Under the pieces are notes generated by a model. It did no database searches. It was not told the DNA's origin and saw only the letters and a list, made by a program, of their open reading frames with translations. Shown here in pieces: positions 2-57,911 of a stretch of DNA of 64,000 nucleotides. Numbering within the stretch: position 1 is the stretch's first letter; the number at the start of each line of letters is the position of its first letter. Origin of the DNA: a virus; the IMG/VR virus record IMGVR_UViG_3300028920_000040, positions 1 through 64,000 of that record. The stretch is one strand, 5' to 3'. Position numbers and translations under genes: made by a program.

Positions 2-3000
2 GATCCTGGTACTAGTACAGTTATTCTTTCTGGATCAGATGAACAAGAGATTCAAGTTGGAAGTCAATATTTTAATGATCTTATTATAGAAAATGAAACC
101 AGTGCTATTACTTTTAAAGACGGATTATCTGTAAGTGGAACATTATCTGCACATGCAGAAGACAGTAATATCAATATACTATTTGATCATTTAGAACCAC
201 ATTATATTAACGAGCTAGATTTTGGTGGTTCTAGTGCAAGTTATGTTATAATAAATTCGACAGTTTCTGGTAATCAATTCGATCTTTCTTCTACGGTTGA
301 TACTACTGTTTGTTATGTGGATGTACAAGATTCTAATTTAAGTGGAGTAACGGTTTCTGCTTATCATTCAATTGATAGTGGAAACAATTCACCTAATTGG
401 ATAATTTCTTCTGCTGGTATACCATCTAATATATCAAGACGGGAAGATGCAAATAATGCGGTAGATGCTTCATCTATTACCATTAATAAACCAACGGGAA
501 CGGTTAATGGTGATGTGATGATAGCTTTTATAGCATGGGAAGATGCTAGTAGAAGCGTTACAGCAGTTCCTAGTGGATGGACTGAAATTGGAGAAATTGA
601 TACTGGAACTTTTGGATATAGTTCGGTATGTAAAGCATACTGGAAAGCGGCTAGTGGTGAGGGAAGTAATTATACATGGTCATTAGATAGTTCAAATGAT
701 ATAAAAGGTAGTATTACTTCATATACTGGTGTTGATAATACTGATCCAATATTAACATCTGCAACATTAGTAAGACAATCCGGTTCGACAACATATACAC
801 CACCTGAAGTTAATATCCCATGTCCTAATGATACTTGGGTAACAATGGTTGATCTTTCTGATGGATTCAATAGTATAAGTGTAGATCACCCCGGATATTA
901 TCAAGTTTATGACGGATTTGGAAATGGTTGTTGTATAAATGTTACAGATACAAATGGAGATGTTACTGGATATACACCAAACAGTATGACTGCTAGTGTG
1001 TCTAAACCTTGGGCGGTATTTACAATAGCATTAAATCCAGGCGAAGTTCCAGAAGAATCAAGTTCTGAATCAAGTGAATCTAGTAGTTCTGAATCAAGCT
1101 CATCATCAGAGAGTTCAAGTTCAGAATCAAGCAGTTCATCTGAGTCTAGCAGTTCAGAGTCTAGTAGTTCTTCGGAATCATCTTCTAGTGAATCTAGTAG
1201 TTCATCCGAATCTAGTTCTTCTGAATCATCGTCAAGCTCTGAATCAAGCTCATCGGAGTCAAGCTCTTCTTCTGAATCATCTAGTTCGGAGTCGAGTTCG
1301 TCTTCTGAAAGTTCAAGTTCGGAATCAAGTAGTTCATCAGAGAGTTCAAGTTCAGAATCAAGCTCAAGTTCAGAGTCTAGTAGTTCATCTGAATCATCCA
1401 GTTCCGAATCAAGCTCATCTAGTGAATCTTCTTCTAGTGAGTCTAGCTCATCATCAGAGTCTAGTAGTTCATCAGAGTCTAGTTCAAGTGAATCATCATC
1501 CTCATCGGAAAGTTCTTCATCAGAGTCTAGCAGTTCGTCTGAATCGAGTTCAAGTGAATCATCATCTAGTTCAGAATCAAGCTCAAGTTCGGAAAGTTCT
1601 TCATCAGAATCAAGTAGTTCTTCTGAAAGTTCAAGCTCAGAATCAAGCTCAAGTTCGGAATCGAGTAGTTCGTCTGAATCATCTAGTAGTGAGTCTAGCT
1701 CATCATCAGAATCAAGCTCAAGTGAATCATCATCTAGTTCGGAATCATCTAGTAGTGAATCTAGTTCCTCGTCCGAGTCAAGCTCGTCTAGTGAATCATC
1801 ATCTAGTGAGTCCAGTTCTTCTTCTGAATCATCTAGTTCCGAATCAAGTTCATCGTCGGAATCGTCATCTAGTTCTGAATCAAGTTCAAGCGAATCGTCA
1901 TCTTCATCCGAGAGTTCATCATCTGAATCAAGCTCATCTTCGGAGTCTAGTTCTTCTGAGTCTAGCAGTTCTTCTGAATCATCTAGTTCCGAATCAAGTT
2001 CATCTTCTGAAAGTTCAAGTTCAGAATCAAGTAGCTCATCTGAATCATCAAGTTCAGAATCTAGTTCATCTAGTGAATCATCATCAAGTTCAGAATCTAG
2101 TTCATCTGAATCAAGTTCAAGTTCAGAATCAAGCAGTTCATCAGAGTCTAGTTCTTCTGAATCAAGCAGTTCTTCGGAGAGTTCAAGTTCAGAGTCTAGT
2201 AGTTCTTCGGAATCTTCTAGCTCTGAATCAAGCAGTTCATCAGAGTCTAGTTCGAGTGAATCTTCATCATCATCAGAGAGTTCATCATCAGAGTCAAGCT
2301 CATCGTCAGAGAGTTCATCTTCCGAATCAAGTTCAAGTTCTGAGTCTAGTTCAAGTTCGGAAAGTTCATCTTCCGAATCAAGTTCAAGTTCAGAGTCTAG
2401 TTCTTCATCAGAGTCTAGCTCAAGTGAATCTTCGTCTAGTTCTGAATCGTCTTCTAGTGAATCTAGTAGCTCATCCGAATCATCTTCAAGCGAGTCTAGT
2501 AGTTCAAGTGAATCATCTAGTTCTGAATCATCTAGTTCAGAGTCAAGCTCAAGTTCGGAATCAAGTTCATCAGAGTCTAGTTCTTCTAGCGAATCAAGCT
2601 CTAGTGAATCTTCTTCGTCATCAGAATCATCTAGTAGTGAATCTAGCAGTTCAGAATCAAGCAGTTCATCAGAGAGTTCTTCATCAGAGTCTAGTTCTAG
2701 TTCAGAATCATCTTCTAGTGAATCAAGTAGTTCATCGGAGTCTAGTTCTTCTGAGTCTAGTAGTTCGTCTGAAAGCTCATCTTCGGAGTCGAGTAGTTCG
2801 TCTGAATCTTCTTCAAGCTCTGAATCAAGCTCAAGCGAGTCTTCATCTTCATCAGAAAGTTCATCTTCGGAGTCTAGTAGTTCATCTGAATCTAGTAGCT
2901 CTGAATCAAGCAGTTCTTCTGAAAGTTCAAGTTCAGAGTCTAGTAGTTCATCAGAAAGTTCATCATCTGAATCATCATCTAGTTCAGAATCAAGCTCGTC

Positions 3001-5350
3001 TTCTGAAAGCTCATCTTCGGAATCTAGTTCTTCTAGTGAGTCTAGCTCATCTTCGGAATCAAGTAGTTCATCCGAATCTAGTTCTTCTGAGTCCAGTTCT
3101 TCATCAGAGAGTTCAAGTTCTGAGTCAAGTAGTTCGTCTGAGTCTAGTTCAAGTTCGGAAAGTTCATCTTCTGAATCAAGCAGTTCATCTGAATCTAGCT
3201 CAAGTGAATCGTCATCTTCATCAGAAAGCTCATCATCAGAGTCTAGTAGTTCTTCTGAGTCTAGTTCTTCTGAGTCATCGTCTAGTTCGGAATCATCTAG
3301 TAGTGAGTCGAGTTCGTCTAGCGAGTCAAGCTCAAGTGAATCATCGTCTTCATCGGAGTCTAGCTCATCATCGGAGTCTAGTAGTTCTGAATCAAGTTCA
3401 AGTTCTGAATCAAGTAGTTCATCAGAGTCTAGCAGTTCGGAGTCTAGTTCATCTTCTGAATCATCTAGTAGTGAATCTAGTAGCTCATCTGAAAGTTCAT
3501 CATCAGAATCAAGCTCAAGTTCAGAATCTAGTTCGTCTGAATCCAGCAGTTCGTCTGAAAGCTCAAATTCTGAATCATCTTCAAGCTCTGAATCGTCAAG
3601 TTCAGAGTCTAGTTCTTCATCAGAGTCAAGCAGTTCAAGTGAATCTAGTTCATCTGAATCAAGCTCATCATCAGAGTCTAGTAGTTCGTCTGAGTCTAGT
3701 TCTTCTGAATCAAGCTCATCGTCAGAGTCTAGTAGTTCGTCTGAAAGCTCGTCTTCTGAATCAAGCTCGTCTTCTGAATCAAGCAGTTCTTCGGAGAGTT
3801 CAAGTTCAGAATCAAGTTCAAGTTCTGAGTCTAGTTCATCGTCAGAGTCATCTAGTTCAGAATCAAGTTCATCAAGTGAATCATCTAGTAGTGAATCTAG
3901 CAGTTCAGAATCAAGCAGTTCATCAGAGAGTTCTTCATCAGAGTCTAGTTCTAGTTCAGAATCATCTTCTAGTGAATCAAGCAGTTCATCAGAGTCTAGT
4001 AGTTCAGAATCAAGCTCTAGTGAGTCTTCATCTAGTTCTGAGTCTAGTAGTAGTGAATCATCATCTAGTTCTGAATCAAGCTCATCCGAATCAAGCAGCT
4101 CAAGTGAATCTAGTAGTTCTGAATCTTCTAGTAGTGAATCAAGCTCATCGTCTGAATCGAGTTCAAGTGAGTCTAGTAGTTCTTCGAAATCTTCTAGTTC
4201 TGAATCAAGTAGTTCTAGTGAGTCTAGCTTAAGTGAGTCTAGTTCATCATCAGAAAGTTCAAGCTCTGAGTCTAGCTCAAGCGAATCAAGTTCTAGTTCA
4301 GAATCATCATCTAGTGAATCTAGTAGTTCTTCGGAATCATCTAGTTCAAAGTCTAGTAGTTCATCTGAAAGTTCATCATCAGAGTCAAGTAGTTCGGAAT
4401 CTAGTTCGTCGTCTGAATCTAGCTTATCAGAATCTTCGTCAAGTAGTGAATCGTCTTCAAGCGAATCAAGTTCTTCATCAGAGTCGAGTTCTTCTGAATC
4501 ATCTAGTAGCGAATCGAGCTCATCATCTGAGTCTTCTTTAAGCGAATCAAGTTCATCTTCGGAGAGTTCATCATCAGAGTCGAGTAGTTCGTCTGAATCA
4601 TCAAGTTCAGAGTCGAGCAGTTCATCGGAAAGCTCTTCTTCTGAGTCTAGTTCGTCTAGTGAATCGTCTTCAAGCGAATCAAGCAGTAGTTCAGAATCAA
4701 GTTCAAGTGAATCGAGTAGTTCGTCAGAGAGTTCAAGTTCAGAGTCTAGCTCATCAAGCGAATCAAGCTCATCAGAGTCAAGTAGTTCATCAGAGTCTAG
4801 TTCGAGTGAATCTAGTAGCTCAAGTGAATCATCTAGTAGTGAGTCTAGTTCTTCTTCTGAATCGTCATTGAGCGAATCATCATCTAGTTCTGAATCTTCT
4901 AGTAGCGAGTCTAGCAGTTCATCAGAAAGTTCAAGTTCAGAATCTAGTTCATCATCATTGTCAAGCTCAAGCGAGTCAAGTAGTTCCTCAGAATCATCAA
5001 GTAGTGAATCTTCTTCTAGTTCTGAATCAAGTAGTTCATCGGAAAGTTCTTCATCCGAATCGAGTTCTAGTTCGGAATCAAGCTCATCAGAGTCAAGCAG
5101 TTCATCGGAAAGTTCTTCATCCGAATCAAGCTCTAGTTCAGAATCGAGTTTAAGCTCATCATCAGAAAGTTCAAGTAGTGAGTCTAGTTCTTCAGTATCA
5201 AGCTCAAGTGAATCAAGTGAATCATCAGAAAGTTCAAGTAGTGAGTCTAGTAGTTCAGTATCAAGCTCAAGTGAATCAAGTGAATCATCAGAAAGTTCAA
5301 GTTCTTCTGTTGTAGTAACATTAAAAAATAGAATAATGATGTTATCATAA
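2..5350 (+). CDS. Giant Ser/Glu-repeat (mucin/SRRP-like) putative virion surface protein, 5'-truncated by window edge
   Basis: Frame 2 is open from position 2 (DPGTSTVILSGSDEQ...) through the GTG at 317, so the true start lies upstream. Beta-rich N-terminal domains are followed by about 1,400 aa of ESSS/ESSSS repeats and a short C-terminal tail VVVTLKNRIMMLS. Confidence 0.85.
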   Translation, partial: DPGTSTVILSGSDEQEIQVGSQYFNDLIIENETSAITFKDGLSVSGTLSAHAEDSNINILFDHLEPHYINELDFGGSSASYVIINSTVSGNQFDLSSTVDTTVCYVDVQDSNLSGVTVSAYHSIDSGNNSPNWIISSAGIPSNISRREDANNAVDASSITINKPTGTVNGDVMIAFIAWEDASRSVTAVPSGWTEIGEIDTGTFGYSSVCKAYWKAASGEGSNYTWSLDSSNDIKGSITSYTGVDNTDPILTSATLVRQSGSTTYTPPEVNIPCPNDTWVTMVDLSDGFNSISVDHPGYYQVYDGFGNGCCINVTDTNGDVTGYTPNSMTASVSKPWAVFTIALNPGEVPEESSSESSESSSSESSSSSESSSSESSSSSESSSSESSSSSESSSSESSSSSESSSSESSSSSESSSSESSSSSESSSSESSSSSESSSSESSSSSESSSSESSSSSESSSSSESSSSESSSSSESSSSESSSSSESSSSSESSSSESSSSSESSSSESSSSSESSSSESSSSSESSSSSESSSSESSSSSESSSSESSSSSESSSSSESSSSESSSSSESSSSESSSSSESSSSESSSSSESSSSSESSSSESSSSSESSSSESSSSSESSSSSESSSSESSSSSESSSSESSSSSESSSSESSSSSESSSSESSSSSESSSSESSSSSESSSSESSSSSESSSSSESSSSESSSSSESSSSSESSSSESSSSSESSSSESSSSSESSSSESSSSSESSSSESSSSSESSSSESSSSSESSSSESSSSSESSSSSESSSSESSSSSESSSSSESSSSESSSSSESSSSESSSSSESSSSESSSSSESSSSESSSSESSSSSESSSSESSSSSESSSSESSSSSESSSSESSSSESSSSSESSSSESSSSSESSSSESSSSSESSSSESSSSSESSSSESSSSSESSSSSESSSSESSSSSESSSSESSSSSESSSSESSSSSESSSSESSSSSESSSSESSSSSESSSSSESSSSESSSSSESSSSSESSSSSESSSSESSSSSESSSSESSSSSESSSSSESSSSESSSSSESSSSESSSSSESSSSESSSSSESSSSESSSSSESSSSESSSSSESSSSESSSSSESSSSSESSSSESSSSSESSSSSESSSSESSSSSESSSSESSSSSESSSSESSSSSESSSSESSSSSESSNSESSSSSESSSSESSSSSESSSSSESSSSESSSSSESSSSSESSSSESSSSSESSSSSESSSSESSSSSESSSSSESSSSESSSSSESSSSSESSSSESSSSSESSSSESSSSESSSSSESSSSESSSSSESSSSESSSSSESSSSESSSSESSSSSESSSSESSSSSESSSSESSSSSESSSSESSSSESSSSSESSSSESSSSSKSSSSESSSSSESSLSESSSSSESSSSESSSSESSSSSESSSSESSSSSESSSSKSSSSSESSSSESSSSESSSSSESSLSESSSSSESSSSESSSSSESSSSESSSSESSSSSESSLSESSSSSESSSSESSSSSESSSSESSSSSESSSSESSSSSESSSSESSSSSESSSSESSSSSESSSSESSSSSESSSSESSSSSESSSSESSSSSESSSSESSSSSESSLSESSSSSESSSSESSSSSESSSSESSSSSLSSSSESSSSSESSSSESSSSSESSSSSESSSSESSSSSESSSSESSSSSESSSSESSSSSESSLSSSSESSSSESSSSVSSSSESSESSESSSSESSSSVSSSSESSESSESSSSSVVVTLKNRIMMLS
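1055..5308 (+). repeat. Low-complexity coding repeat (ESSS/ESSSS)n, codon-diversified
   Basis: Translation is almost only Ser and Glu. The DNA mixes TCN/AGY and GAA/GAG codons. There is an exact ~104-nt duplication (2624-2727 vs 3878-3981) and a 63-nt near-tandem unit at 5158-5283. Confidence 0.95.
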
Positions 5351-5361
5351 ATAATATAAAA

Positions 5362-5390
5362 TTGACAAAGTATAAATAAAATATTATTTT
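5362..5390 (+). promoter_or_regulatory. sigma70-like promoter (TTGACA-N17-TATTTT) with an embedded T4 late promoter TATAAATA (5371-5378)
   Basis: Sequence ttgacaaagtataaataaaatattatttt lies upstream of RBS AAGGAG and ATG 5423. A near-identical copy is at 61023-61051. Confidence 0.65.
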
Positions 5391-5422
5391 AATATGTTAT
5401 ATAAATTGAAAAAGGAGTTTAT

Positions 5423-7129
5423 ATGGAAAGTGAATTGACTTTTAGTACATTTGACAAGATACCTATTCCATTTGAAAAACATTATAAAAATAAATCCTGT
5501 TTTTTAATTTTATCAGGACCTTCATTAAATAAACACGACTTGACGCAATTAAAACAGCCAGGTATAATTACATTTGGTGTAAACAATTCTGTAAAAACAT
5601 TTAGACCTAATTTATGGTCGTGTGTAGACCATCCGTCTAGATTTATGATTAGTATTTGGAAGGACCCAAATATTACTAAATTTGTTCCTTTTTTTAAATC
5701 CAAATCAAATCTTTTTGATAATGCTAATTGGAAACATACTGATTTAAGAGTTATGGATTGTCCCAATGTAATTTATTATCATCGAAACGAACATTTTAAT
5801 GCCGATACATATTTAACAGAAAAAACGGTCAATTGGGGAAATCATAAAAAATATGGTGGAGGCCGTAGTATAATGTTGGCCGCAATAAAAATATGTTATT
5901 TATTGGGATTTAAAAACGTATTTTTACTTGGATGTGATTTTAAAATGGTCGAAGGACAACAAAATTATTCTTGGAATCAAGATAGACATCCAGGCTCAAT
6001 TAAAGGTAATAATAGTACTTATAATAAATTAATAGAAAGATATAAACAGTTACAACCAATTTTTGAGAAAAACGATTTTCATGTTTATAATTGTAATCCC
6101 GATTCACAACTTAAGGTATTTTCTTTTATAGACTATAGTGAAGCCATTTCATTATCTTTAAATGAATTCCCAGATGTTACAACTGAAAAGGCAGAAGGAA
6201 TGTATAATAGGTTTGATGAAGAAAATAGTAAGAAAAAAGAGAAAAAGAAAACAGAAAAGATAGAAAAAGCAATTAAAAAAATTAAGAAAAATGAAAAACC
6301 AATTAGTGGTTCCTGTGGAGTTATTTATTATAATGTGGGCAGAGGAGCAATAGTAAGACTTGCAGTTTCTCTTTCTACATGTGTAAATTATTATCCTAAA
6401 GATAAAATTACAATTTTATCAGACTATGAAGGCTATGATGATTGTAAGAAAATTGCAAATCATTTTGGTGTTAATATAAAAATTATTGAGTTGGAAAAAC
6501 TTAACAGAAAACAAATTCTTTTAAATAAATGTCTAGCTCATAATTATACACCTTATGATAATACAATATTCATCGATTCTGATACAATTATTTTGGGAAA
6601 ATTTGACGAACTTCACGATGAAGCTGACAGAAATGAATTTGTAGTTACACAATTTTCTGATTGGACAACTAAAAGAAGTGTAATTAAAAAGAGAATAAAA
6701 GAATGGAAAGAAATATTTCCTGAGATGATAAAAGAAGCACTTGAGGAAAGACCTTCAGTTAATGTTGGTGTATTTGCTTTTCGTAAAGATAGTGAATTTA
6801 TGAATGCTTGGTTTGACTATGCTAAACATGGTACTCATATGTTTATACCGGACGAACAATGTTGTCACTTATTATTACCAAAATATAAGAATAGTATAGT
6901 ATCTAATGATTATAATACTAGTTGTAAATATGATAAGGTTAAAGATACAACTAAGATACTTCACTTTCATGGAAAAAAACATTGTAGATTGGACGCTAAT
7001 AAAAATTATATAAATAACAGCGATAAATGGTATGCGGAATTTGATAAGATTAGCGAATTAGATTTCGTTAAAAATAACATTGAATTTGATAAACAACTGA
7101 GAAAACATTTACCAGAAAGAGCCATATGA
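5423..7129 (+). CDS. Two-domain glycosyltransferase: N-terminal Maf/DUF115/GT42-like + C-terminal GT8-like GT-A
   Basis: N-terminal motifs ILSGPSL, FGVNN, VFLLGCDF, VYNCNPDS. C-terminal motifs IFIDSD (DxD), NVGVF, DEQ, ILHFHG. Lys/Glu linker between them. Confidence 0.75.
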   Translation: MESELTFSTFDKIPIPFEKHYKNKSCFLILSGPSLNKHDLTQLKQPGIITFGVNNSVKTFRPNLWSCVDHPSRFMISIWKDPNITKFVPFFKSKSNLFDNANWKHTDLRVMDCPNVIYYHRNEHFNADTYLTEKTVNWGNHKKYGGGRSIMLAAIKICYLLGFKNVFLLGCDFKMVEGQQNYSWNQDRHPGSIKGNNSTYNKLIERYKQLQPIFEKNDFHVYNCNPDSQLKVFSFIDYSEAISLSLNEFPDVTTEKAEGMYNRFDEENSKKKEKKKTEKIEKAIKKIKKNEKPISGSCGVIYYNVGRGAIVRLAVSLSTCVNYYPKDKITILSDYEGYDDCKKIANHFGVNIKIIELEKLNRKQILLNKCLAHNYTPYDNTIFIDSDTIILGKFDELHDEADRNEFVVTQFSDWTTKRSVIKKRIKEWKEIFPEMIKEALEERPSVNVGVFAFRKDSEFMNAWFDYAKHGTHMFIPDEQCCHLLLPKYKNSIVSNDYNTSCKYDKVKDTTKILHFHGKKHCRLDANKNYINNSDKWYAEFDKISELDFVKNNIEFDKQLRKHLPERAI

Positions 7130-8661
7130 GAAGAAGAAGTTTTACAATAGTCACATCATGTACTCCGGAATATTTAACAAAACTAAAATGGACTATTCCA
7201 ACTTGGAATTTGAAACCCCAGTTTAGAGGAAAGAAATTAATATTATTTCATCATGGGTTTGATAATTTATCTGATTTAGATTTTGTTAAGAACTATTTTG
7301 ATACTAAGTTGATTGAATGGGATATGCCGGAGTATAGTAATGATAGAGAGCTAATGCTTTCGTCTTTTATTTTTGGTTCGGCTAAGCATGTTAAAACTCC
7401 TTATTTTGTAAAGATTGATGTAGATGCTTTTTTTACCACGCCTGATGATGTTTTTGGAAGAAAGGATTTCAGATGTGATGTTGTTGGACATTCGTGGAAA
7501 TATACTAAACCGGGTTATTGGATAAATGATTTAGATAAGTATTACTCCGGACAAGATACAGGCAAGTATGGCAGAACATATCGACATCGCCGCCTCGCCA
7601 GTTTTGGTTGTTTACATAAAACTGAATTTGTTCAGATGTTAGCAAATAAGTTTGGTAACAGACTTCCAGTTCCAAGTCATGATACGGTTGTTTGGTATTT
7701 TGCTGATAAGATGCCAGATAGGAAATGGGGCAGTAAAAAAATTAAAAGAAAGGGATTTACCAATTCTTCAAGGATGGGAAAAATTAAACAACAAGTGTGT
7801 GATACAATTAATGCTTATCCAGATTTCTTTAAAAACAACTTACCAGATTATATTCGACAAGAATTTAACAAAAGAAATTATCCTCAAACAATGATAAAAC
7901 CAGAACTTCCATCAATAGAGATTTGTTATTTTTGTCATAATTTTCAAAGAAGGTTAAATTGGGTTTTATCAAGTATAGTCGAACAGGTCGGTGAAGTGCC
8001 TGATATCATTATTAATATTGCATCATTAGAAAATAATGGTTTACCAACAACAGAAGATTTAGTTAAATATTATTCTGATAATTATGGATTGGTCTTTAAT
8101 CATATTATTTTTAAGGAAAAAAATCAAATAAATTTAAGGGGAATAATTAGAAATATTCAAATAGAAAAATCTAAATGTGATTGGTTACATTTTGCTGATG
8201 CTGATCATTTGTTTCATCCAACATTTTTTAGTGAATTGGGAAAGGTACTAAGGAGTGGAGAGAAAGACGATGGCATCCTTTTTTCTTCCAATAAGATCAC
8301 AACAGATATTGAAGCAACTAATAAAGTCTTTGAGGATAAGGATAAAGCATACTTTCAAGAGAATGTTTTCGATGTTAGTTTCCAAATCCCAATGATTAGG
8401 CATCGGGTTAAAAAGGTTGCTGGTGGTAATATGCAAATTGTCAGTAGAAAAATTATTAATGAGAAGTGTGGTGGAAAATATGTAGACCCATCAGCGAATA
8501 GAGATAGAGGATATTTTTCAAGAAGAGGCGGTACAGCCAGAAGTGATAAACAGTTTAGGAGAATCATCGCAAATCAATATCGTTTGAGATTGCCTACTGT
8601 TATCAACTTGAATCATTATAGAGATAAGGAAGTCGGTCATCATTTGGAAGAACAGCGGTAA
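7126..8661 (+). CDS. Tandem two-domain GT-A (GT2-like) glycosyltransferase
   Basis: Two DxD-type motifs (VKIDVDAFF; LHFADADHLF), each after a Rossmann-like strand. Start overlaps the upstream stop (ATGA). Confidence 0.7.
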   Translation: MRRRSFTIVTSCTPEYLTKLKWTIPTWNLKPQFRGKKLILFHHGFDNLSDLDFVKNYFDTKLIEWDMPEYSNDRELMLSSFIFGSAKHVKTPYFVKIDVDAFFTTPDDVFGRKDFRCDVVGHSWKYTKPGYWINDLDKYYSGQDTGKYGRTYRHRRLASFGCLHKTEFVQMLANKFGNRLPVPSHDTVVWYFADKMPDRKWGSKKIKRKGFTNSSRMGKIKQQVCDTINAYPDFFKNNLPDYIRQEFNKRNYPQTMIKPELPSIEICYFCHNFQRRLNWVLSSIVEQVGEVPDIIINIASLENNGLPTTEDLVKYYSDNYGLVFNHIIFKEKNQINLRGIIRNIQIEKSKCDWLHFADADHLFHPTFFSELGKVLRSGEKDDGILFSSNKITTDIEATNKVFEDKDKAYFQENVFDVSFQIPMIRHRVKKVAGGNMQIVSRKIINEKCGGKYVDPSANRDRGYFSRRGGTARSDKQFRRIIANQYRLRLPTVINLNHYRDKEVGHHLEEQR

Positions 8662-8706
8662 AACTGTAATAAACTGATTGAAAGCCCGCTTAATAGGAGT
8701 ATAGTA

Positions 8707-9345
8707 ATGAGAGTTAATTATTTTGATTTAGGTTTATATACTGCAGTCGAACTAGATTGGATGGTAAATAGTATCCTGCCTTCAATTGGTGTATTGGATT
8801 TTAGAGCCTATGGATTTGAAGCAAATCCAACAATATACCAAAAAGATGTTCAGAAATTTAAATCACATGATAAAGTTGAAATTTTTAATCTTGCAATTTG
8901 TCGGCAAAACACTAAAATCAATTTTTACCTTTCAGACAACCCAGTAAGTCATTCTATTTATTCAACAAAAAAGAATGTTGATGCCAATAAATTTATTGAA
9001 GTTCAAGGTGTAGTTTTTTCTGATTGGATTAAGGAAAATGTCCCAACTTTTAAAAAAGACTTTAACATAATTAAAGCCAATATAGAAGGTGCTGAATGGG
9101 ATTTAATGAATGACTTAAATGATAATGATATGATAAAAAACATTCAAATTTTTTGTGGTCAGTTCAAAGATGTTAAGAAAGTTAAAGAACTCAGAGGCAA
9201 TTTGCGAACATATAGAAATTTTTTCAAAGAAAACAACATTCGAATTGAAAGATTTGCTTCCCATCGTAGACGTAAAAATGCAGACATGAGTTCGATTATA
9301 AAAGAAAAACTTAAAAGTTTTGGCAAAAATAGTTATGAAAAATAA
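8707..9345 (+). CDS. FkbM-family SAM-dependent methyltransferase
   Basis: Motifs YFDLG, AYGFEANP, IIKANIEGAEW (KxDIEGAE-like). RBS AGGAG. Confidence 0.75.
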   Translation: MRVNYFDLGLYTAVELDWMVNSILPSIGVLDFRAYGFEANPTIYQKDVQKFKSHDKVEIFNLAICRQNTKINFYLSDNPVSHSIYSTKKNVDANKFIEVQGVVFSDWIKENVPTFKKDFNIIKANIEGAEWDLMNDLNDNDMIKNIQIFCGQFKDVKKVKELRGNLRTYRNFFKENNIRIERFASHRRRKNADMSSIIKEKLKSFGKNSYEK

Positions 9346-10273
9346 AGGATGCATATTAATTCCAGATTTTAGTGTTTATTGTTTAAATCCCGGAACACTT
9401 TATTGTAGATATGGCGCATATATTCCACTATTTCAACTAATAGAAAAAAATTTGGGATTCAAAAGCATTGTATTAAAAGAAAATAATTTTGAAGAATTAT
9501 ATGATTATGATGTTATCATAACTTTTACATTTCCTTGTAGAGTTAGTTATTCTTTTGAAAAAAATATTTATAAACTTTCTAAGGATGTTAAGATTATTGG
9601 ATATTTTACGGATTTGTTTAATTCTTTGCGTAGAAGAAAATCAAGGTTTAATATTTTAATGGAAAGATGTGATAAAATAGTATATACATATGATGAAGCT
9701 TTTAAAAATAGGTGGCCACAATTTATTGAAAAGGCTGAGTGGGTGCCACAGTTTTTAAGTCTTTCAGATTATGTAAAAAACTTAAAAATAAATGAGAACC
9801 CGATAAATAAGTGTCTTGTATCGGGTCGTACTCGGAGGCGCCACTATCCATTAAGGTCTTTTGTTTCTAAACATTTACGTCAAAATGATAATATAGATTT
9901 TTTAAAACATCCTAAATATATTAAAAATGAAGCTTTGATTAAATATGATTACTTAAATTTTTTACACAAATATCGTTGTTGTTTGTCTAGTTGTTCTGCT
10001 TTTAAATGTGTTGTCCGAAAAAATTTTGAAATACCTTCCACTGGTTCTATTCTATTATCTGACACTTGTGAGGATATGAAGAAATTAGGATTCATTCCAT
10101 CTGTTAATTATGTAGATGTAAATAAAGAAAACTTTGAAAAAAAGGTTAGGGATATATTGAATCATCCAGAAGATTATGAACACATAAGAGAAAATGGAAG
10201 GAAATTTGTTTTGGAGAACCATACAGAGTATCATAGGTTTGAACAGTTAAAAAGGATAATTGAAGAATTATGA
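9335..10273 (+). CDS. GT-B glycosyltransferase (Glyco_trans_1_2/CgeB-like)
   Basis: C-terminal RKNFEIPSTGSILL and IRENGRKFVLENHTEYHRFEQL signature. ATG 9335 preferred over TTG 9320. Confidence 0.75.
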   Translation: MKNKGCILIPDFSVYCLNPGTLYCRYGAYIPLFQLIEKNLGFKSIVLKENNFEELYDYDVIITFTFPCRVSYSFEKNIYKLSKDVKIIGYFTDLFNSLRRRKSRFNILMERCDKIVYTYDEAFKNRWPQFIEKAEWVPQFLSLSDYVKNLKINENPINKCLVSGRTRRRHYPLRSFVSKHLRQNDNIDFLKHPKYIKNEALIKYDYLNFLHKYRCCLSSCSAFKCVVRKNFEIPSTGSILLSDTCEDMKKLGFIPSVNYVDVNKENFEKKVRDILNHPEDYEHIRENGRKFVLENHTEYHRFEQLKRIIEEL

Positions 10274-11400
10274 AAATTGATATGCGCCCACCACAATACC
10301 ATTACTTCAATCAGCTAATGGAACATGTGGAAAATAAAGATATTTTCTTTGGTGATAGATTTATCTATCCCAGACAATTTGAAATACATCTTCCAGGCGA
10401 CCATAGGAAGGCTTGTAATCTTCATTGTCCTCACTGTGCTGGTAAGTTGTTTGATAAATCTCTTGGAACTTGGGAAGTAGAGGGACTTGCTTTACTACAT
10501 AAACTTAAAGGCGCAATTCCTTTTCATATCTATGGTGGAGCTTATACAGAACCTTTGATGAACCCATACTATATGTCCTATCTTGCCACTACAAAATATT
10601 ATGGTAATCACTTTGGTATTCATACGAACGGAAGTCTCTTAACAACACTTGAAAAGAAAACTGGATTCTTAACAGAGTTGAATAGAATTTCCACTGACGA
10701 TATTGATTATCTGTCGGTGAGCATTGATGCTGGTTTACCAGAATCTTGGGCAAAGACCAAGGGTACGAAAGAGAATTATTTGTTCAATGATGAAATCATT
10801 AAGGGTCTTGAGTATGCAACAGATATTCGTAAGAGAGTTGGCAAACCGAGTCATGCAATACGGATGTGTTACCTTATATCACACCACAGCGATAATGATG
10901 AAAATTTCAAGGCTATTGTTGAACACGCAAAGAGAATAGGAGTAGACAGTCTCCGTTTTTCAATACCATTTGCTAACTATAATCAATCATTTGACAAGGT
11001 TAGAGAATATAAAAACAACAGAGAACTTCCTGACGATGAAAATTATTATAAAAGGCTACAACAATATCTTTCTAAAAGTAAAGATGAAAGACCATACATT
11101 TTCTATACAGGACCGGAGTTTACAGATATAGATGAGTTTAATTTTAGTCAATGCATTTATGGATATTATCAGATTACTTTTGGTGCTGACGGATATGTAT
11201 ATAAGTGTAGTACAACAGCAACACCGACTGGTAAACAATGCCGGTTGGGAAGAATTACTGCGGATATTGATGAGTTTAGAAAAATGATAGAGAAGAATTA
11301 TAATCCCAATTGGGATGCCCAGAAAAATTGTTTTAATTGTGGTCTTCGTTGTAATAGAATGGGTCTTGAAATTAACAAGGCATATCAGGATATGAAATAA
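10270..11400 (+). CDS. Radical SAM protein with C-terminal SPASM/twitch-like Cys cluster
   Basis: CNLHCPHC (CxxxCxxC), GGAYTEP, TNG. C-terminal C...ADGYVYKC...CFNCGLRC. Confidence 0.85.
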   Translation: MKIDMRPPQYHYFNQLMEHVENKDIFFGDRFIYPRQFEIHLPGDHRKACNLHCPHCAGKLFDKSLGTWEVEGLALLHKLKGAIPFHIYGGAYTEPLMNPYYMSYLATTKYYGNHFGIHTNGSLLTTLEKKTGFLTELNRISTDDIDYLSVSIDAGLPESWAKTKGTKENYLFNDEIIKGLEYATDIRKRVGKPSHAIRMCYLISHHSDNDENFKAIVEHAKRIGVDSLRFSIPFANYNQSFDKVREYKNNRELPDDENYYKRLQQYLSKSKDERPYIFYTGPEFTDIDEFNFSQCIYGYYQITFGADGYVYKCSTTATPTGKQCRLGRITADIDEFRKMIEKNYNPNWDAQKNCFNCGLRCNRMGLEINKAYQDMK

Positions 11401-12284
11401 TGTCATTAACTGATAAAAGAAATAAAGTCGCTTTGATAGGAAAAGGATATTGGGGAAGCAAGCTTTTGAAGTATATACCAAATCACTTCGATTTGGTTGC
11501 TGTGGCAGATTCTAAAACTGATTTGAAACAGATATGGAGTTCAGATATTGAGTCTGTTATCATAGCGACTCCAATACAGACTCACTATGAACTAACTAAG
11601 GAGGCTCTCCTTGCGGGTAAGAATGTCTATGTTGAGAAGCCTTTAGCGTTAAAGTATGAGCAAGGTATTGAAATTGTAAATATTGCAAGAGAGAAAGGAT
11701 TGAGGCTTGATGTTGAATACACTCAGATGTTCTCAAAAGGTCTTCAATATATACAATCAAAGGATATTGGAGAGATAGAGTTTATTGAAATGTCAACTAA
11801 ACATCTTGGAAGATTCGTGGATTATGATGTTTTTTGGTTGTTGGTATCTCACCACTTATCAGTTCTTCCAATGTTTTTCAGCCTTTTAGATTTGGACTTT
11901 AATTTCAAAAAGTATATGTTTCATAATGGTATTTGTACTACGGGTTCTATTGAATGTTTGAAGAAAGGAACTGACAAGATAAAAGCCAAATTGGACGTAA
12001 GTTTGAATTACTATAAGAAGGAATTTTGTATAAATGTTTATGGTACGAAAGGATTTGCTAAATATGATGCAACAAATCAAATTCCAGTTTCTATAACTTG
12101 GTATGAAAAAAAGCGTTCAGTATTACCAAACGAAATGATTATCGGCGTAGAAAATATAAGATTTGATGAAATGAATAATCTTGAATTATCTATTAAACAT
12201 TTCAAAGATTTGATAGAAGGTAGAGATGTTGACAATCTTGATATAGCTCTTGAAATTACCAGAATTCTTGAAAATGGAGGTTAA
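11400..12284 (+). CDS. Gfo/Idh/MocA NAD(P)-dependent oxidoreductase
   Basis: Motifs LIGKGYWG, IATPIQTH, GKNVYVEKPL. Confidence 0.85.
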   Translation: MSLTDKRNKVALIGKGYWGSKLLKYIPNHFDLVAVADSKTDLKQIWSSDIESVIIATPIQTHYELTKEALLAGKNVYVEKPLALKYEQGIEIVNIAREKGLRLDVEYTQMFSKGLQYIQSKDIGEIEFIEMSTKHLGRFVDYDVFWLLVSHHLSVLPMFFSLLDLDFNFKKYMFHNGICTTGSIECLKKGTDKIKAKLDVSLNYYKKEFCINVYGTKGFAKYDATNQIPVSITWYEKKRSVLPNEMIIGVENIRFDEMNNLELSIKHFKDLIEGRDVDNLDIALEITRILENGG

Positions 12285-12286
12285 TT

Positions 12287-12649
12287 ATGATCAAACAATC
12301 AAAGGTCTGGGGCGAAACAGCTAAAATATTTTCACTTAATAATGTAGAGATACATAGAATTGAAATTGAACCCGGTGGATATTGTAGCGAACATTGCCAC
12401 GAATTTAAATATAATCAATTCTTTATAGAGAGTGGGGAGATAGAAGTTACAATATATAGAGACAACGGCATTGAAGAAACTACAGTTCTTAAACCTTATG
12501 ATCAAACAACAGTTCCACCAAAACTCGTTCATAAATTTAAAGCTAATCGAAAATCAATAGTTTACGAGATTTATTGGGTTGCAATGGAAGGAGAAGATAT
12601 TGTAAGGAGAACTGTTGGTGGAAAAATTACTAATAAGAAAATTAAATAA
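12287..12649 (+). CDS. Cupin-domain protein (sugar isomerase/epimerase-like)
   Basis: Cupin motifs KVWG, SEHCHEFKYNQFFIESG, VPPKLVHKF. Confidence 0.75.
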   Translation: MIKQSKVWGETAKIFSLNNVEIHRIEIEPGGYCSEHCHEFKYNQFFIESGEIEVTIYRDNGIEETTVLKPYDQTTVPPKLVHKFKANRKSIVYEIYWVAMEGEDIVRRTVGGKITNKKIK

Positions 12650-20617: not shown

Positions 20618-20992
20618 ATGAAAAACAGACTAACAGAAGCAGCGAATCGTTTTCTTGGTGAAGAAGATTTAGGAGAACCTTCTACGATTGATTTTCAGCA
20701 GGAATTTTTTAATACTGGTCTTTCAGTTGAAAAAGGATTAACAGAAGATCAAGTCGATTCCGATCAACTCATCGAGGGTATGAAAGTTGAAATGGAACAT
20801 ACCACTAACGAAGACATTGCAAAGAAGATTGCTCTTGATCATCTTGCAGAAAATCCAAAGTATTATGATTACTTGAAAGAAATGGAAGAAAAGATGGAAA
20901 AAAGTTCTGATGATAAACCAGAAGAAGGTAGTGTTCCTGACAACGCAGTTGATATCGATATGGAAGAACCATCGGAGGAAGACGAAGAATAA
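20618..20992 (+). CDS. DUF5661-like acidic phage protein
   Basis: GMKVEMEHT..DIAKKIALDHLAENPKYYDYL signature. Confidence 0.7.
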   Translation: MKNRLTEAANRFLGEEDLGEPSTIDFQQEFFNTGLSVEKGLTEDQVDSDQLIEGMKVEMEHTTNEDIAKKIALDHLAENPKYYDYLKEMEEKMEKSSDDKPEEGSVPDNAVDIDMEEPSEEDEE

Positions 20993-21501
20993 TGTCAATT
21001 CTTAACGAGATTGAAAAATATTTTAAAGACAAAGAAGTCTTTGTTGATATGGATGGTGTGCTTACAGATTTTGATAAGCATTTTGAAACTCTCGGATTTG
21101 GTACAGTAGAAGAGGCAGAAGAAGAAACTCATAAGAGAGTGTGGAGACTTGTTAAAGATCACGGTAATAAGGAATTTTGGAGTAAGATGCCTTGGATACA
21201 CAATGGCAAAAAACTTTGGGACATTGTTAAACAATATAATCCAACTATATTAAGCTCTCCTATTAAAGATAAAAGTTGCTACGAAGGAAAGAGAGAGTGG
21301 GTAGAAAGAGAACTTGGTCCTAGAGTTAAAGTTATTCTTAGATCTGATAAAGAATCTTTGGCGCATCCAAATGCATTACTAATCGATGACAGATCAAAAA
21401 ATATTATCAATTGGAAACTTAAAGGCGGAGTGGGTATTAAACATAAAGATAATGATTTGGAATCTACTATTAATCAACTTAAAAAGTTTATCGAGGAATA
21501 A
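20992..21501 (+). CDS. HAD-family 5'(3')-deoxyribonucleotidase (NT5C-like)
   Basis: VFVDMDGVLTDF (DxD motif I), ILSSP, GKREW, LLIDDR. Confidence 0.85.
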   Translation: MSILNEIEKYFKDKEVFVDMDGVLTDFDKHFETLGFGTVEEAEEETHKRVWRLVKDHGNKEFWSKMPWIHNGKKLWDIVKQYNPTILSSPIKDKSCYEGKREWVERELGPRVKVILRSDKESLAHPNALLIDDRSKNIINWKLKGGVGIKHKDNDLESTINQLKKFIEE

Positions 21502-56519: not shown

Positions 56520-57911
56520 ATGTCATTTGGATTTCTGGAATACCTAAAAGACTATCAAAACGAGGATGTCGATGGCGTCCAGAAGATTCTTGATGATAAG
56601 TACGAAAAGACTTACGAAATCATCAAGGAAGCCTTCTATGGTGATTTTGTTTCTAAGAACGAAGCTATCGATAAGATCAAGGAAGAATTTGTATCAAAAG
56701 ATGCACCAAAGAAAATTGATAAGGAATTTATCAAGGAAAATATGGATTACATCATTGAGCAAGTGAATGATCTTGACGAAGGCGAGATTCGTATTATTAT
56801 TAATAATGACGTTAATAAGGGTAAGAACGGTCCTGCGGCTCCGGTCATGGCTCCCGCAAATGTTGCCGTTATGCCTGATATGTCCGGTGACATAGAATAC
56901 GAATGTGATGAAAAAGGTAAGAAAGGCCCCGGCAGACCTAAGAAAAAAATTGTTGATGAAAAGAAAGAAGAAGAAGAAGTCGACGAGGCTTGTAGTAAAA
57001 AGAATAAGAAAGACAAGAAAGAAAAGATAGAAGAAGAAGCAGAGGCTCTTGAAGAGGCTAAGAAGAAGAAAAAGAAGAAGAAGAAAGAAGAAGAGCCAGA
57101 GGAAGAAGAAGTAACTGATATCGACGACGCAGATGCTGAGACTGCTGAAGAAGAAACTCCAGAGGAAGAAAATTCCGATGAAGATGCTTCGGAAGAGGAA
57201 GAAGAAAAGGCTGAAGACGAAGAAGAAGAAACCGACGAGGCTCCTGAAGGTTCTGAATCCGATGAAGAAGACAAAGAAGATTTCGATATGAGTATTGACG
57301 ATCTTGATTTGTATATGGACCCAGAAGAACTTGCTGGTGAAGAAAAGGGAGAAAAAGAGGAAGAGGAAGAAGAAGAAAAAGCAGACGAGCCTGAAGAAGA
57401 AGAAACTGAAGGCGAGGACGAGGAAGAAGAAACTGAAGGCGAGGACGAGGAAGAAGAAACTGAAGGCGAGGAAGAAGATACTGAGGACGAGGAAGAAGAC
57501 GAAGACGGCAAAAAGAAAAAGAAAAAGAAGAAAAAGAAGAAAGCCGATGCCGATGATGAAGAGGCTGAAGACGACGATGCAATAGAAGACTTCGAAGAGT
57601 CTGACGAAGTCAAGTTTGAAAAGTATCTTGAAAAAAAAAAGTTAACGGAGTCTGAAATTAAAGTTCAGGATATTTTTGCAGACAATGATGATATAAAAGA
57701 TTATCTCATGGATATAACTGAAGGCGATTATGATAGTATTGAATGGGGAGATTCTGAAATCGAATATGATGGAGAAGTCTTAGCCAGAAAATTAACTAAA
57801 GAAGAAGTTAAAGAAATATTATCTAAAGACGATGATCTTTCTGCGAAAGTATCATCTGCAATAGAAAATGCAGACGATCCAGATAATCCAGAACCTTGGT
57901 ATGTCAAATAA
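56520..57911 (+). CDS. Very acidic, largely disordered protein with poly-Lys tracts and AT-hook-like GRPKK (possible internal head protein)
   Basis: Long Glu/Asp runs, two K9-K11 tracts, GPGRPKKK. RBS AGGAG. Confidence 0.75.
   Translation: MSFGFLEYLKDYQNEDVDGVQKILDDKYEKTYEIIKEAFYGDFVSKNEAIDKIKEEFVSKDAPKKIDKEFIKENMDYIIEQVNDLDEGEIRIIINNDVNKGKNGPAAPVMAPANVAVMPDMSGDIEYECDEKGKKGPGRPKKKIVDEKKEEEEVDEACSKKNKKDKKEKIEEEAEALEEAKKKKKKKKKEEEPEEEEVTDIDDADAETAEEETPEEENSDEDASEEEEEKAEDEEEETDEAPEGSESDEEDKEDFDMSIDDLDLYMDPEELAGEEKGEKEEEEEEEKADEPEEEETEGEDEEEETEGEDEEEETEGEEEDTEDEEEDEDGKKKKKKKKKKKADADDEEAEDDDAIEDFEESDEVKFEKYLEKKKLTESEIKVQDIFADNDDIKDYLMDITEGDYDSIEWGDSEIEYDGEVLARKLTKEEVKEILSKDDDLSAKVSSAIENADDPDNPEPWYVK
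57396..57470 (+). repeat. 27-nt tandem coding repeat (EEETEGEDE) x about 3
   Basis: gaagaagaaactgaaggcgaggacgag is repeated. Confidence 0.8.

Follow-up and report, generated by a model that had tools for sequence, protein, structure and literature searches.

A serine-rich repeat protein encoded beside a Maf-like glycosyltransferase cluster in an uncultured T4-like phage: a candidate glycosylated virion tether

The window analysed here is a stretch of 64,000 nucleotides (nt) of viral DNA, the first 64 kb of one 123,835-bp contig (IMG/VR record IMGVR_UViG_3300028920_000040), and it opens with a very long serine-rich open reading frame (ORF) that is followed by a cluster of seven enzyme genes. 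The ORF is open from its first bases and is truncated at its 5' end by the contig end; its translation consists of ~350 non-repeat residues, a Ser/Glu tract and a 13-residue tail. No terminal repeat was found on the contig ends and the reading frame has no continuation across the joined ends, which rules out a circular join of the contig and means that the N-terminus of the protein is missing. The original prediction had described an ORF of more than 1,780 amino acids (aa) with a Ser/Glu end of ~1,400 aa, a glycosyltransferase (GT) gene within ~70 nt of it and a list of downstream domains. The values measured are 1,782 aa, a tract of 1,419 aa built of ESSSS and ESSSSS units, and a spacer of 72 nt to the next ATG (position 5423); the domain calls for the seven downstream genes agree with that list, several of them below the Pfam cut-offs. 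The features are as follows.

2..5350, + strand: Ser-rich ORF, 1,782 aa, truncated at its 5' end
2..420, + strand: C-terminal end of a long beta-helix domain, its N-terminal part cut by the contig start
410..1051, + strand: all-beta head module of ~200 aa (residues ~145-350) with homologues and an AF2 model, belonging to no Pfam family
1052..5308, + strand: Ser/Glu tract (ESSSS/ESSSSS)n, 1,419 aa (residues 351-1769), proposed O-glycan acceptor and flexible tether
5309..5350, + strand: 13-aa C-terminal tail VVVTLKNRIMMLS and stop codon, proposed docking peptide recognised by its motif
5371..5378, + strand: TATAAATA, T4-type motif resembling a late promoter, 45 nt before the start of the enzyme gene (motif scan)
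5423..7129, + strand: two-domain glycosyltransferase with a Maf-like N-domain (aa 9-249) and a GT8 C-domain (aa 295-556), from fold and profiles
7126..8661, + strand: probable double GT-A transferase, N-half GT-A-like and C-half GT2-like (PF00535 E 9e-4, below cut-off)
8707..9345, + strand: FkbM-family methyltransferase (PF05050 25.0 bits, cut-off 22.7; TIGR01444 39.1, cut-off 37.7; phrog_8156)
9320..10273, + strand: GT-B-like protein (Glyco_trans_1_2; PF13524 E 4.5e-12, 46.6 bits, cut-off 25)
10270..11400, + strand: radical SAM/SPASM enzyme (PF04055 30.9 bits, cut-off 29.5)
11400..12284, + strand: GFO/IDH/MocA NAD-dependent sugar oxidoreductase (PF01408 E 3e-16)
12287..12649, + strand: small cupin, kept in all three close relatives (PF07883 32.5 bits, cut-off 27.2; WbuC-type match weak)

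The tract contains 1,153 Ser (81%), 255 Glu (18%) and 11 other residues, arranged as 128 ESSSSS units, 109 ESSSS units and 18 variant units. All six Ser codons are used (TCA 368, AGT 300, TCT 281, AGC 96, TCG 88, TCC 20), in proportions that are roughly those of six other genes in the window. No DNA word longer than 104 nt is repeated exactly, and the repeats returned by Tandem Repeats Finder are all degenerate (60-100% matches), with periods in multiples of 3. The use of six codons, the short maximum word and the degenerate repeats argue for selection on the amino acids rather than for a recently expanded DNA repeat, and the plus frame is taken as coding because it is continuous with a head that has strong homologues (best E 7e-42). 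The computed net charge of the tract is -253 and its contour length is 355-511 nm, calculated with general polymer figures for the length per residue. Public contigs tile parts of the tract, with exact pieces of 231-1,320 nt from run X1 and pieces with 0-1 differences from X2 and X3. None of them bridges the whole tract and many alternative joints were seen, and the exact repeat number is therefore not independently confirmed.

The first domain (residues 2-140) resembles the terminal parts of long beta-helix proteins (P0040, P0010 and P0012) and, over 137 aa, shares 32% identity with the beta-helix head of SRR1, a Ser-tract protein of the related locus L002. When the 383-aa N-terminal part was searched, 3,236 library proteins were matched at E<=1e-3, mainly through the all-beta head module, which the library matches show to be frequently tandem in large surface proteins. 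No Pfam or PHROG match was found for this module, and a metagenome scan that used the head domain found no relative. The AF2 model has a pLDDT of 82 and is all beta. Its viral structure neighbours include mycobacteriophage minor tail proteins (TM 0.67-0.75); its best PDB match has a Z of 6.8, which is the background level, and no fold family is named for this reason. A conserved pattern, P-x-G...GD...P-x-GW...Y-x-K-V-A...E-x-S-x-Y-T-W, runs through positions 410-1066 (aa 137-355).

At the other end of the protein, the tail motif [RK][IVL]M[MVIL]LS occurs at the C-terminus of 3 of 9,096 ORFs, all three of which are Ser-tract proteins (that of the window, L002 SRR2 and L003). As originally predicted, the protein has neither an LPxTG motif nor a transmembrane (TM) anchor; LPxTG, signal-like and TM-like segments were absent from all four Ser-tract proteins examined (the window's and those of three relatives), and the N-termini of the L001, L002 and L004 proteins, which are intact, have no hydrophobic segment.

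The lead enzyme of the cluster, ORF 5423, was identified by its fold. The AF2 model has a pLDDT of 91, and the best match of its N-domain is the flagellin O-glycosyltransferase Maf (5mu5; Z 13.1, rmsd 3.7, 198 residues aligned), ahead of the MptE kinase 8sd5 (Z 10.6, 156 aligned); the domain thus does not resemble MptE-type kinases only, a result that would have spoken against the original prediction. The match to the MptE-like family PF01973 has an E of 4e-7 and is listed for this protein in a precomputed database table. Additionally, phrog_4603 is matched at 6e-12. The Maf half of the predicted Maf/GT42-like assignment agrees with this fold result, and the GT42 half rests on the name of phrog_4603; no Cst-II structure stands among the 50 fold matches listed, which makes the GT42/Cst-II reading doubtful rather than refuting it. 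The motifs SGPSL and LLGCDF that had been pointed out in this protein recur in the consensus of its family. The N-domain is a relative of Maf at the level of the modelled fold only.

The fold of the C-domain bears out the GT8-like domain of the prediction. Its matches are LgtC (Z 19.4), the Skp1 galactosyltransferase (18.7), glycogenin (18.6), GlyE of S. pneumoniae (5gvv, 17.4) and the PBCV-1 capsid glycosyltransferase (14.6). Foldseek matches of ORF 5423 are UGGT, glycogenin and XXYLT1, and a profile search reaches glycogenin at an E of 0.0035 across the DxD. Residues D385/D387 and H514/H516/G517/K519 are invariant in the family alignment, so that the domain combines the GT-A fold, the DxD metal site and the C-terminal His/Lys motif by which CAZy delimits GT8; we take the DxD and the C-terminal His/Lys motifs to be what defines this family.

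The remaining six genes encode further transferases and putative tailoring enzymes, and no TM-like segment was found in any enzyme of the cluster. In L001 and L002 the two halves of ORF 7126 have their counterparts in different, separate genes, at 63% identity for the N-half and 35% for the C-half; structural leads from the Atlas, which are leads only, are GT8-, GT15- and Nucleotid_trans-like clusters (TM 0.58-0.76). ORF 9320, whose real start may be the ATG at 9335, is 67% identical to an L001 gene. Searches of PDB sequences gave no significant match for ORFs 7126, 9320 and 10270, the single match of ORF 9320 being Gtf1 (5e9t, E 0.1). The SPASM and maturase-type models all score far below their cut-offs on ORF 10270, the radical SAM enzyme. 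An L001 gene located 10 kb before the GT is 82% identical to it, and none of the L002 ORFs matches it. ORF 11400 weakly resembles inositol and UDP-GlcNAc 3-dehydrogenases, and the cupin is 75-77% identical to genes in L001 and L002.

The phage origin that had been proposed for this DNA is borne out by its T4-type genes, assigned with Pfam and PHROGs. These include the gp20 portal (E 3e-100) and the gp23 major capsid protein (5e-84) as well as a protease, a scaffold, the large terminase, the sheath and a baseplate wedge, all on the plus strand. To judge from these genes the source is an uncultured T4-like myovirus with a genome of ~250 kb, 48% of which is covered by the contig (CheckV); statements below on what the contig lacks apply to this portion. 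The major capsid protein is at most ~34% identical to that of any deposited phage, which makes this a deep lineage, and DNA-level matches of the contig to deposited sequences are short. Parts of the stretch are present in three metagenome runs labelled marine sediment, and an identical ORF 5423 enzyme is also on record on a 226-kb contig. Within the neck/tail structural block lies a 5'-3' deoxyribonucleotidase-like gene (20992-21501, + strand; phrog_2643, E 5e-29).

The motif TATAAATA, which we take to be the T4 late-promoter consensus, was found 21 times in the window against 12.5 expected. Intergenic DNA makes up 2.9% of the window and holds nine of the 14 copies on the plus strand (p 2e-11); these nine stand 22-83 nt upstream of gene starts, including those of the scaffold, sheath and gp13-like genes. 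The plus-strand sites include 12664, 16199, 17153, 19429, 19803, 24532, 24555 and 52843. By its placement, the motif is likely a late-promoter signal of this deep T4-like lineage. Since the copy before ORF 5423 is placed as those before the scaffold, sheath and gp13-like genes are, its position argues for late expression of the cluster along with the virion genes.

Genomic linkage between Ser tracts and this enzyme family, which the original prediction had expected in relatives, was determined in loci from other genomes. An alignment of 21 full-length ORF 5423 homologues was used to retrieve 33 viral loci (606 kb), and 45 TerL-anchored loci from related phages (545 kb) served as controls; to count as a Ser-tract ORF, a frame had to be 150 aa or longer, contain 45 or more Ser per 100 aa and lie at most 10 kb from the homologue. 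Such an ORF was found near the enzyme in 17 of the 33 viral loci and in none of the 45 controls (Fisher p 1.9e-8). Related loci are not independent of one another; when they were grouped by shared DNA with single-linkage clustering, the proportions were 10/18 clusters and 0/9 clusters (two-sided p 0.0088). In assemblies of cellular genomes, mostly Verrucomicrobia metagenome-assembled genomes (MAGs), 5 of 15 loci have a Ser tract, and new metagenome loci, counted after six duplicates of viral loci had been removed, have one in 12 of 73 cases (9 of 26 for loci of at least 10 kb). The ORF 5423 homologues at L081-L093 stand on contigs binned into Verrucomicrobia MAGs with Akkermansia, Prosthecobacter and Brevifollis labels.

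An open frame antisense to a Glu-rich gene can mimic a Ser-rich ORF, and one such frame was found over the gene at 56520-57911; its AGY fraction of Ser codons is 0.01. AGY and TCN codons occur together in each of the 22 viral and cellular-genome loci that scored positive (AGY fraction 0.10-0.82), which excludes an antisense artefact as the source of these 22. The gene at 56520-57911 (+ strand) itself encodes a protein of 463 aa that starts MSFGFLEYLKDY, has an extreme content of Glu (119 residues), Lys (68) and Asp (66) and contains poly-K runs.

The closest relatives inform on the arrangement of the protein. L001 and L002, whose enzymes are 78-80% identical to that of the window, both carry Ser-tract genes: L002 has two, one of them directly upstream of the enzyme gene, and L001 has one, 7 kb downstream of the enzyme. 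Because the L001 gene sits 7 kb away on the other side of the enzyme, the linkage must have survived a rearrangement between these two loci. In L004, where the enzyme is 65% identical, a single ORF of 1,070 aa joins a head of 330 aa to a Ser tract of 523 aa, after which comes a domain of the T4 neck protein gp14 (PF11649 35 bits, cut-off 25; phrog_679 3.7e-15), the sole gp14 match in the L004 record. In L002 and in the complete 264-kb relative G002, a single gp14 gene is flanked by the two Ser-tract genes, beside a collagen-like fibre gene. A conserved collagen-repeat fibre gene likewise adjoins the Ser-tract genes at 5937-6911 in L002 and at 17314-18369 in L001. The heads of the relatives vary and are modules of lectin or adhesin type, being Laminin_G_3 in L001 and L019, FG-GAP in L017 and, below the cut-off, BclA_C-like in L002, where the match of the SRR2 head to the BclA C-terminal domain is weak (30.6 bits, cut-off 38).

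The fusion to gp14, the gp14 neighbourhood, the varied heads and the tail motif, taken together as a Rosetta-stone type of argument from sequence, point to a protein whose N-terminal end is a variable distal head, followed by a tether and by a C-terminal anchor, most likely at the neck. The predicted docking of the tail to the particle fits with the confinement of the motif to Ser-tract proteins and with the gp14 domain that occupies the place of the tail in L004; the docking itself we infer. When the gp14-like protein of L002 was modelled in complex with the final 50 residues of L002 SRR2, the score was 0.00, which speaks neither for nor against binding. Among the 30 Ser-rich ORFs listed, the tract reaches to at most 9 residues from the stop in 15, and some of these may be genes split by frameshifts. 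ORFs that end inside the tract with another ORF directly after them are seen at L006 (5704-9955), L028 (3232-4778) and L033 (2623-9874), and these could be frameshifts, assembly errors in the repeats or truly split genes.

The following mechanism is proposed. The truncated ORF would encode a virion appendage protein composed of a head, a tether and an anchor. The N-terminal beta-helix and the beta-sandwich module would form a distal binding head, the 1,419-aa tract a very long flexible tether with a contour of ~350-500 nm, and the short conserved C-terminal tail would be its attachment to the particle, with the neck as the likeliest site. The seven downstream genes would encode soluble, late-expressed enzymes, of which the Maf-like/GT8 fusion and the other transferases would attach O-glycans to the serines in the cytoplasm of the host, either ahead of assembly or in the course of it, and the methyltransferase, oxidoreductase, cupin and radical SAM enzyme would tailor the sugars or the nucleotide donors. 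This would yield a hair of bottle-brush form, mucin-like and strongly anionic. We give somewhat better than an even chance to the Ser-tract protein being a glycosylated tether attached to the virion. What was observed is the anatomy of the protein, the folds of the enzymes, their genomic linkage with Ser tracts and, in a relative, the fusion to gp14; from these we infer the attachment of sugars, the location on the virion, the anchoring site and the biological role, and roles in adhesion, shielding or passage through extracellular polymeric substances (EPS) are speculation.

Several observations weigh against this proposal. The N-terminus of the Ser-rich protein is missing from the contig, and the anchoring partner is unseen there, as a tblastn search of the contig found no gp14. 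The tail motif is shared among close relatives, which do not count as independent cases. The Maf-like and GT2 Pfam scores lie below the curated cut-offs (30.3 bits against 34.6 in hmmscan for ORF 5423 and 19.7 against 23.3 for ORF 7126). Roughly every second enzyme-anchored locus lacks a Ser tract within 10 kb, and the control set collapses to 9 clusters that are all T4-like. No RNA run is listed among those that contain the stretch. Polyserine linkers that are not known to carry glycans are reported from modular bacterial carbohydrate-active enzymes. The sugar donor counts against it as well: no NeuB was found in the contig, where CTP_transf_3 reached only 15.3 bits, below threshold, and a second glycan island of the phage's own genome, at ~64.4-72.2 kb, is without the Maf/cytidylyltransferase/NeuB core of the corresponding G002 island.

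Linked synthesis of a CMP-nonulosonate was thus found in G002 but not in the contig. Genes for NeuB (E 4e-63) and for a cytidylyltransferase are present in G002. A second Maf-like gene, which stands alone and scores above the cut-off (41 bits), abuts the cytidylyltransferase gene and lies 3.4 kb from that for NeuB. The island of the phage's own genome is syntenic with that of G002, with the GT10-like gene and several others in common at 27-46% identity. The G002 island (L174, G002:C1:240001-256000) holds GT11-/GT10-like fucosyltransferases, a HAD/NTP-transferase, the Maf-like enzyme, the cytidylyltransferase, a radical SAM/SPASM enzyme, a methyltransferase and NeuB. For the window's phage, the donor could be a CMP-sugar made by the host, the product of a pathway encoded in the other half of the genome, or a different donor.

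Several known systems can be compared with this locus. The serine-rich repeat proteins (SRRPs) of Gram-positive bacteria, such as Fap1, GspB and PsrP, likewise join a very long Ser-rich tract to a binding domain and have adjacent glycosyltransferases, and the GT8-fold enzyme described here matches GlyE, which decorates the serine-rich adhesin PsrP. For the GtfA/GtfB pair of these systems no significant homologue was found; ORF 9320 has a GT-B-type Pfam domain and reaches Gtf1 only at the E of 0.1 given above. Unlike SRRPs, the phage protein has no LPxTG and its relatives have no signal-like segment; SecA_DEAD was not found in the 124-kb contig; the repeat unit is ESSSS/ESSSSS, whereas SRRP repeats are alternating SxSx; the head is N-terminal to a single tract; and the genes are phage-encoded and stand among virion genes. 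The phage system would work like the SRRP glycosylation islands and is not a member of them. The reading as a viral analogue of SRRPs, as originally put forward, stands as far as the Maf and GT8 folds and the linkage are concerned; its GT42 and nonulosonate parts found no backing in the contig.

The Maf flagellin O-glycosyltransferases (Magnetospirillum, 5mu5) provide the best fold match of the N-domain, and with them the reaction would share a soluble, cytoplasmic setting; the placing of the second Maf-like gene of G002 beside a cytidylyltransferase and near NeuB is a further likeness. In contrast to Maf, the phage domain is fused to GT8 and scores below the Pfam cut-off, the presumed acceptor is a low-complexity tract rather than a folded flagellin, and no nonulosonate pathway was found in the contig.

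Virion glycosylation in mycobacteriophages is reportedly the subject of work by Freeman et al. that appeared in Cell Host Microbe in 2023. According to a citing passage in PMC12619734, mycobacteriophage GTs place glycans on the C-termini of the phage's own capsid and tail tube subunits, and these glycans are said to serve as a shield. This is the nearest phage precedent, with phage-encoded GTs acting on the phage's own structural proteins; the acceptors there are short C-terminal ends, whereas the acceptor here would be a dedicated appendage tract of 1,419 aa, with a Maf/GT8 fusion as its enzyme. Literature searches found no published account of phage Ser-tract proteins with Maf-like enzymes.

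The neck appendages of T4 (fibritin/wac whiskers on the gp13-gp14 neck) are comparable through the fusion of tract and gp14 in L004 and the gp14 gene flanked by Ser-tract genes in L002; in T4 the wac gene directly precedes genes 13 and 14. Unlike fibritin, the phage tether is disordered and Ser-rich, with no coiled coil and no foldon, and its distal head is N-terminal. The polyserine linkers of bacterial carbohydrate-active enzymes also join globular modules by long Ser runs. They measure tens of residues and occur in secreted enzymes, and they are not known to be tied to a dedicated transferase cluster. The phage tract differs from them in its 1,419 residues and its regular spacing of Glu.

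These linkers lend some credit to the alternative that the Ser/Glu tract is an unmodified acidic flexible spacer, an entropic bristle, and that the enzymes act on other virion proteins, on host envelope glycans or on free polysaccharide, which we regard as unlikely though deserving of weight. It also draws on the second glycan island, which is the larger of the two and means that the sugar genes are not tied solely to the Ser-tract protein, on the 16 of 33 viral loci with no tract within 10 kb of the enzyme, and on the distance of 7 kb, on the far side, in L001. An unmodified spacer does not fit with the enrichment of Ser tracts over the controls, with the linkage being kept through the rearrangement between L001 and L002, with the recurrence of the pairing around enzymes that are only 28-55% identical in genomes of 35-66% GC, or with best fold matches that are glycosylators of Ser/Thr-rich proteins (Maf, with GlyE among the matches listed). 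The protein could instead stay off the particle, being released at lysis, displayed on the infected cell or kept in the cell as a polyanionic decoy. We consider this improbable: the relatives with intact N-termini have no signal-like segment, the L004 tract is fused to a gp14 neck domain, the genes lie in a structural module beside neck and fibre genes, and the heads are typical phage fibre or lectin modules. What speaks for a place outside the virion is that the missing N-terminus of the window protein could hold an export signal and that a net charge of -253 would suit a nucleic-acid mimic or an ion sponge.

A different modification of the serines, by phosphate or by a radical-SAM-dependent conversion that the SPASM enzyme would carry out, with the transferases being secondary, appears more improbable still. 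SPASM enzymes that act on protein side chains are known, and a radical SAM/SPASM enzyme is encoded both in the cluster and in the G002 island; its gene is nevertheless inconstant, lying 10 kb off in L001 and being unmatched among the L002 ORFs, no kinase was found among the cluster genes, and the conserved core consists of the transferases and the cupin. Least of all do we expect the tract to be an assembly artefact or non-coding low-complexity DNA. The lack of a bridging public contig, the many alternative joints and one antisense frame that is also open over the tract could be cited for this. They are set against a frame that is continuous with a head having homologues at an E of 7e-42, a mix of AGY and TCN codons that indicates selection for serine, contig pieces from X1, X2 and X3 that match with 0-1 differences, and independent contigs with tracts of 288 to >880 residues.

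If the Ser-tract protein is indeed a glycosylated virion tether, tailed phages would possess a type of surface organelle that is new to description. The tether, coated with sugars and anionic, would be far longer than known whiskers and would be made by relatives of the enzymes that decorate flagella and adhesins. Such a tether would revise views on phage adsorption in sediments and biofilms and on the colloid behaviour and persistence of phages, and the 'auxiliary' sugar genes of large marine phages, which are often assumed to be directed at the host, would need to be rethought. A wider proposal, which we put forward tentatively and with less than even confidence, is that many uncultured tailed phages from unrelated lineages and habitats bear such mucin-like hairs, with lectin-type heads held hundreds of nm away from the neck or tail on polyserine tethers that Maf-like enzymes coat with acidic sugars, in at least some lineages nonulosonic acids. 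Hairs of this kind would form a class of virion appendage that has not been described and would be the first counterpart among phages to the serine-rich adhesins of bacteria. In the window's phage the hair, with its contour of ~350-500 nm, would exceed a T4-type particle in length and would be anchored at the neck by a tail of 13 residues.

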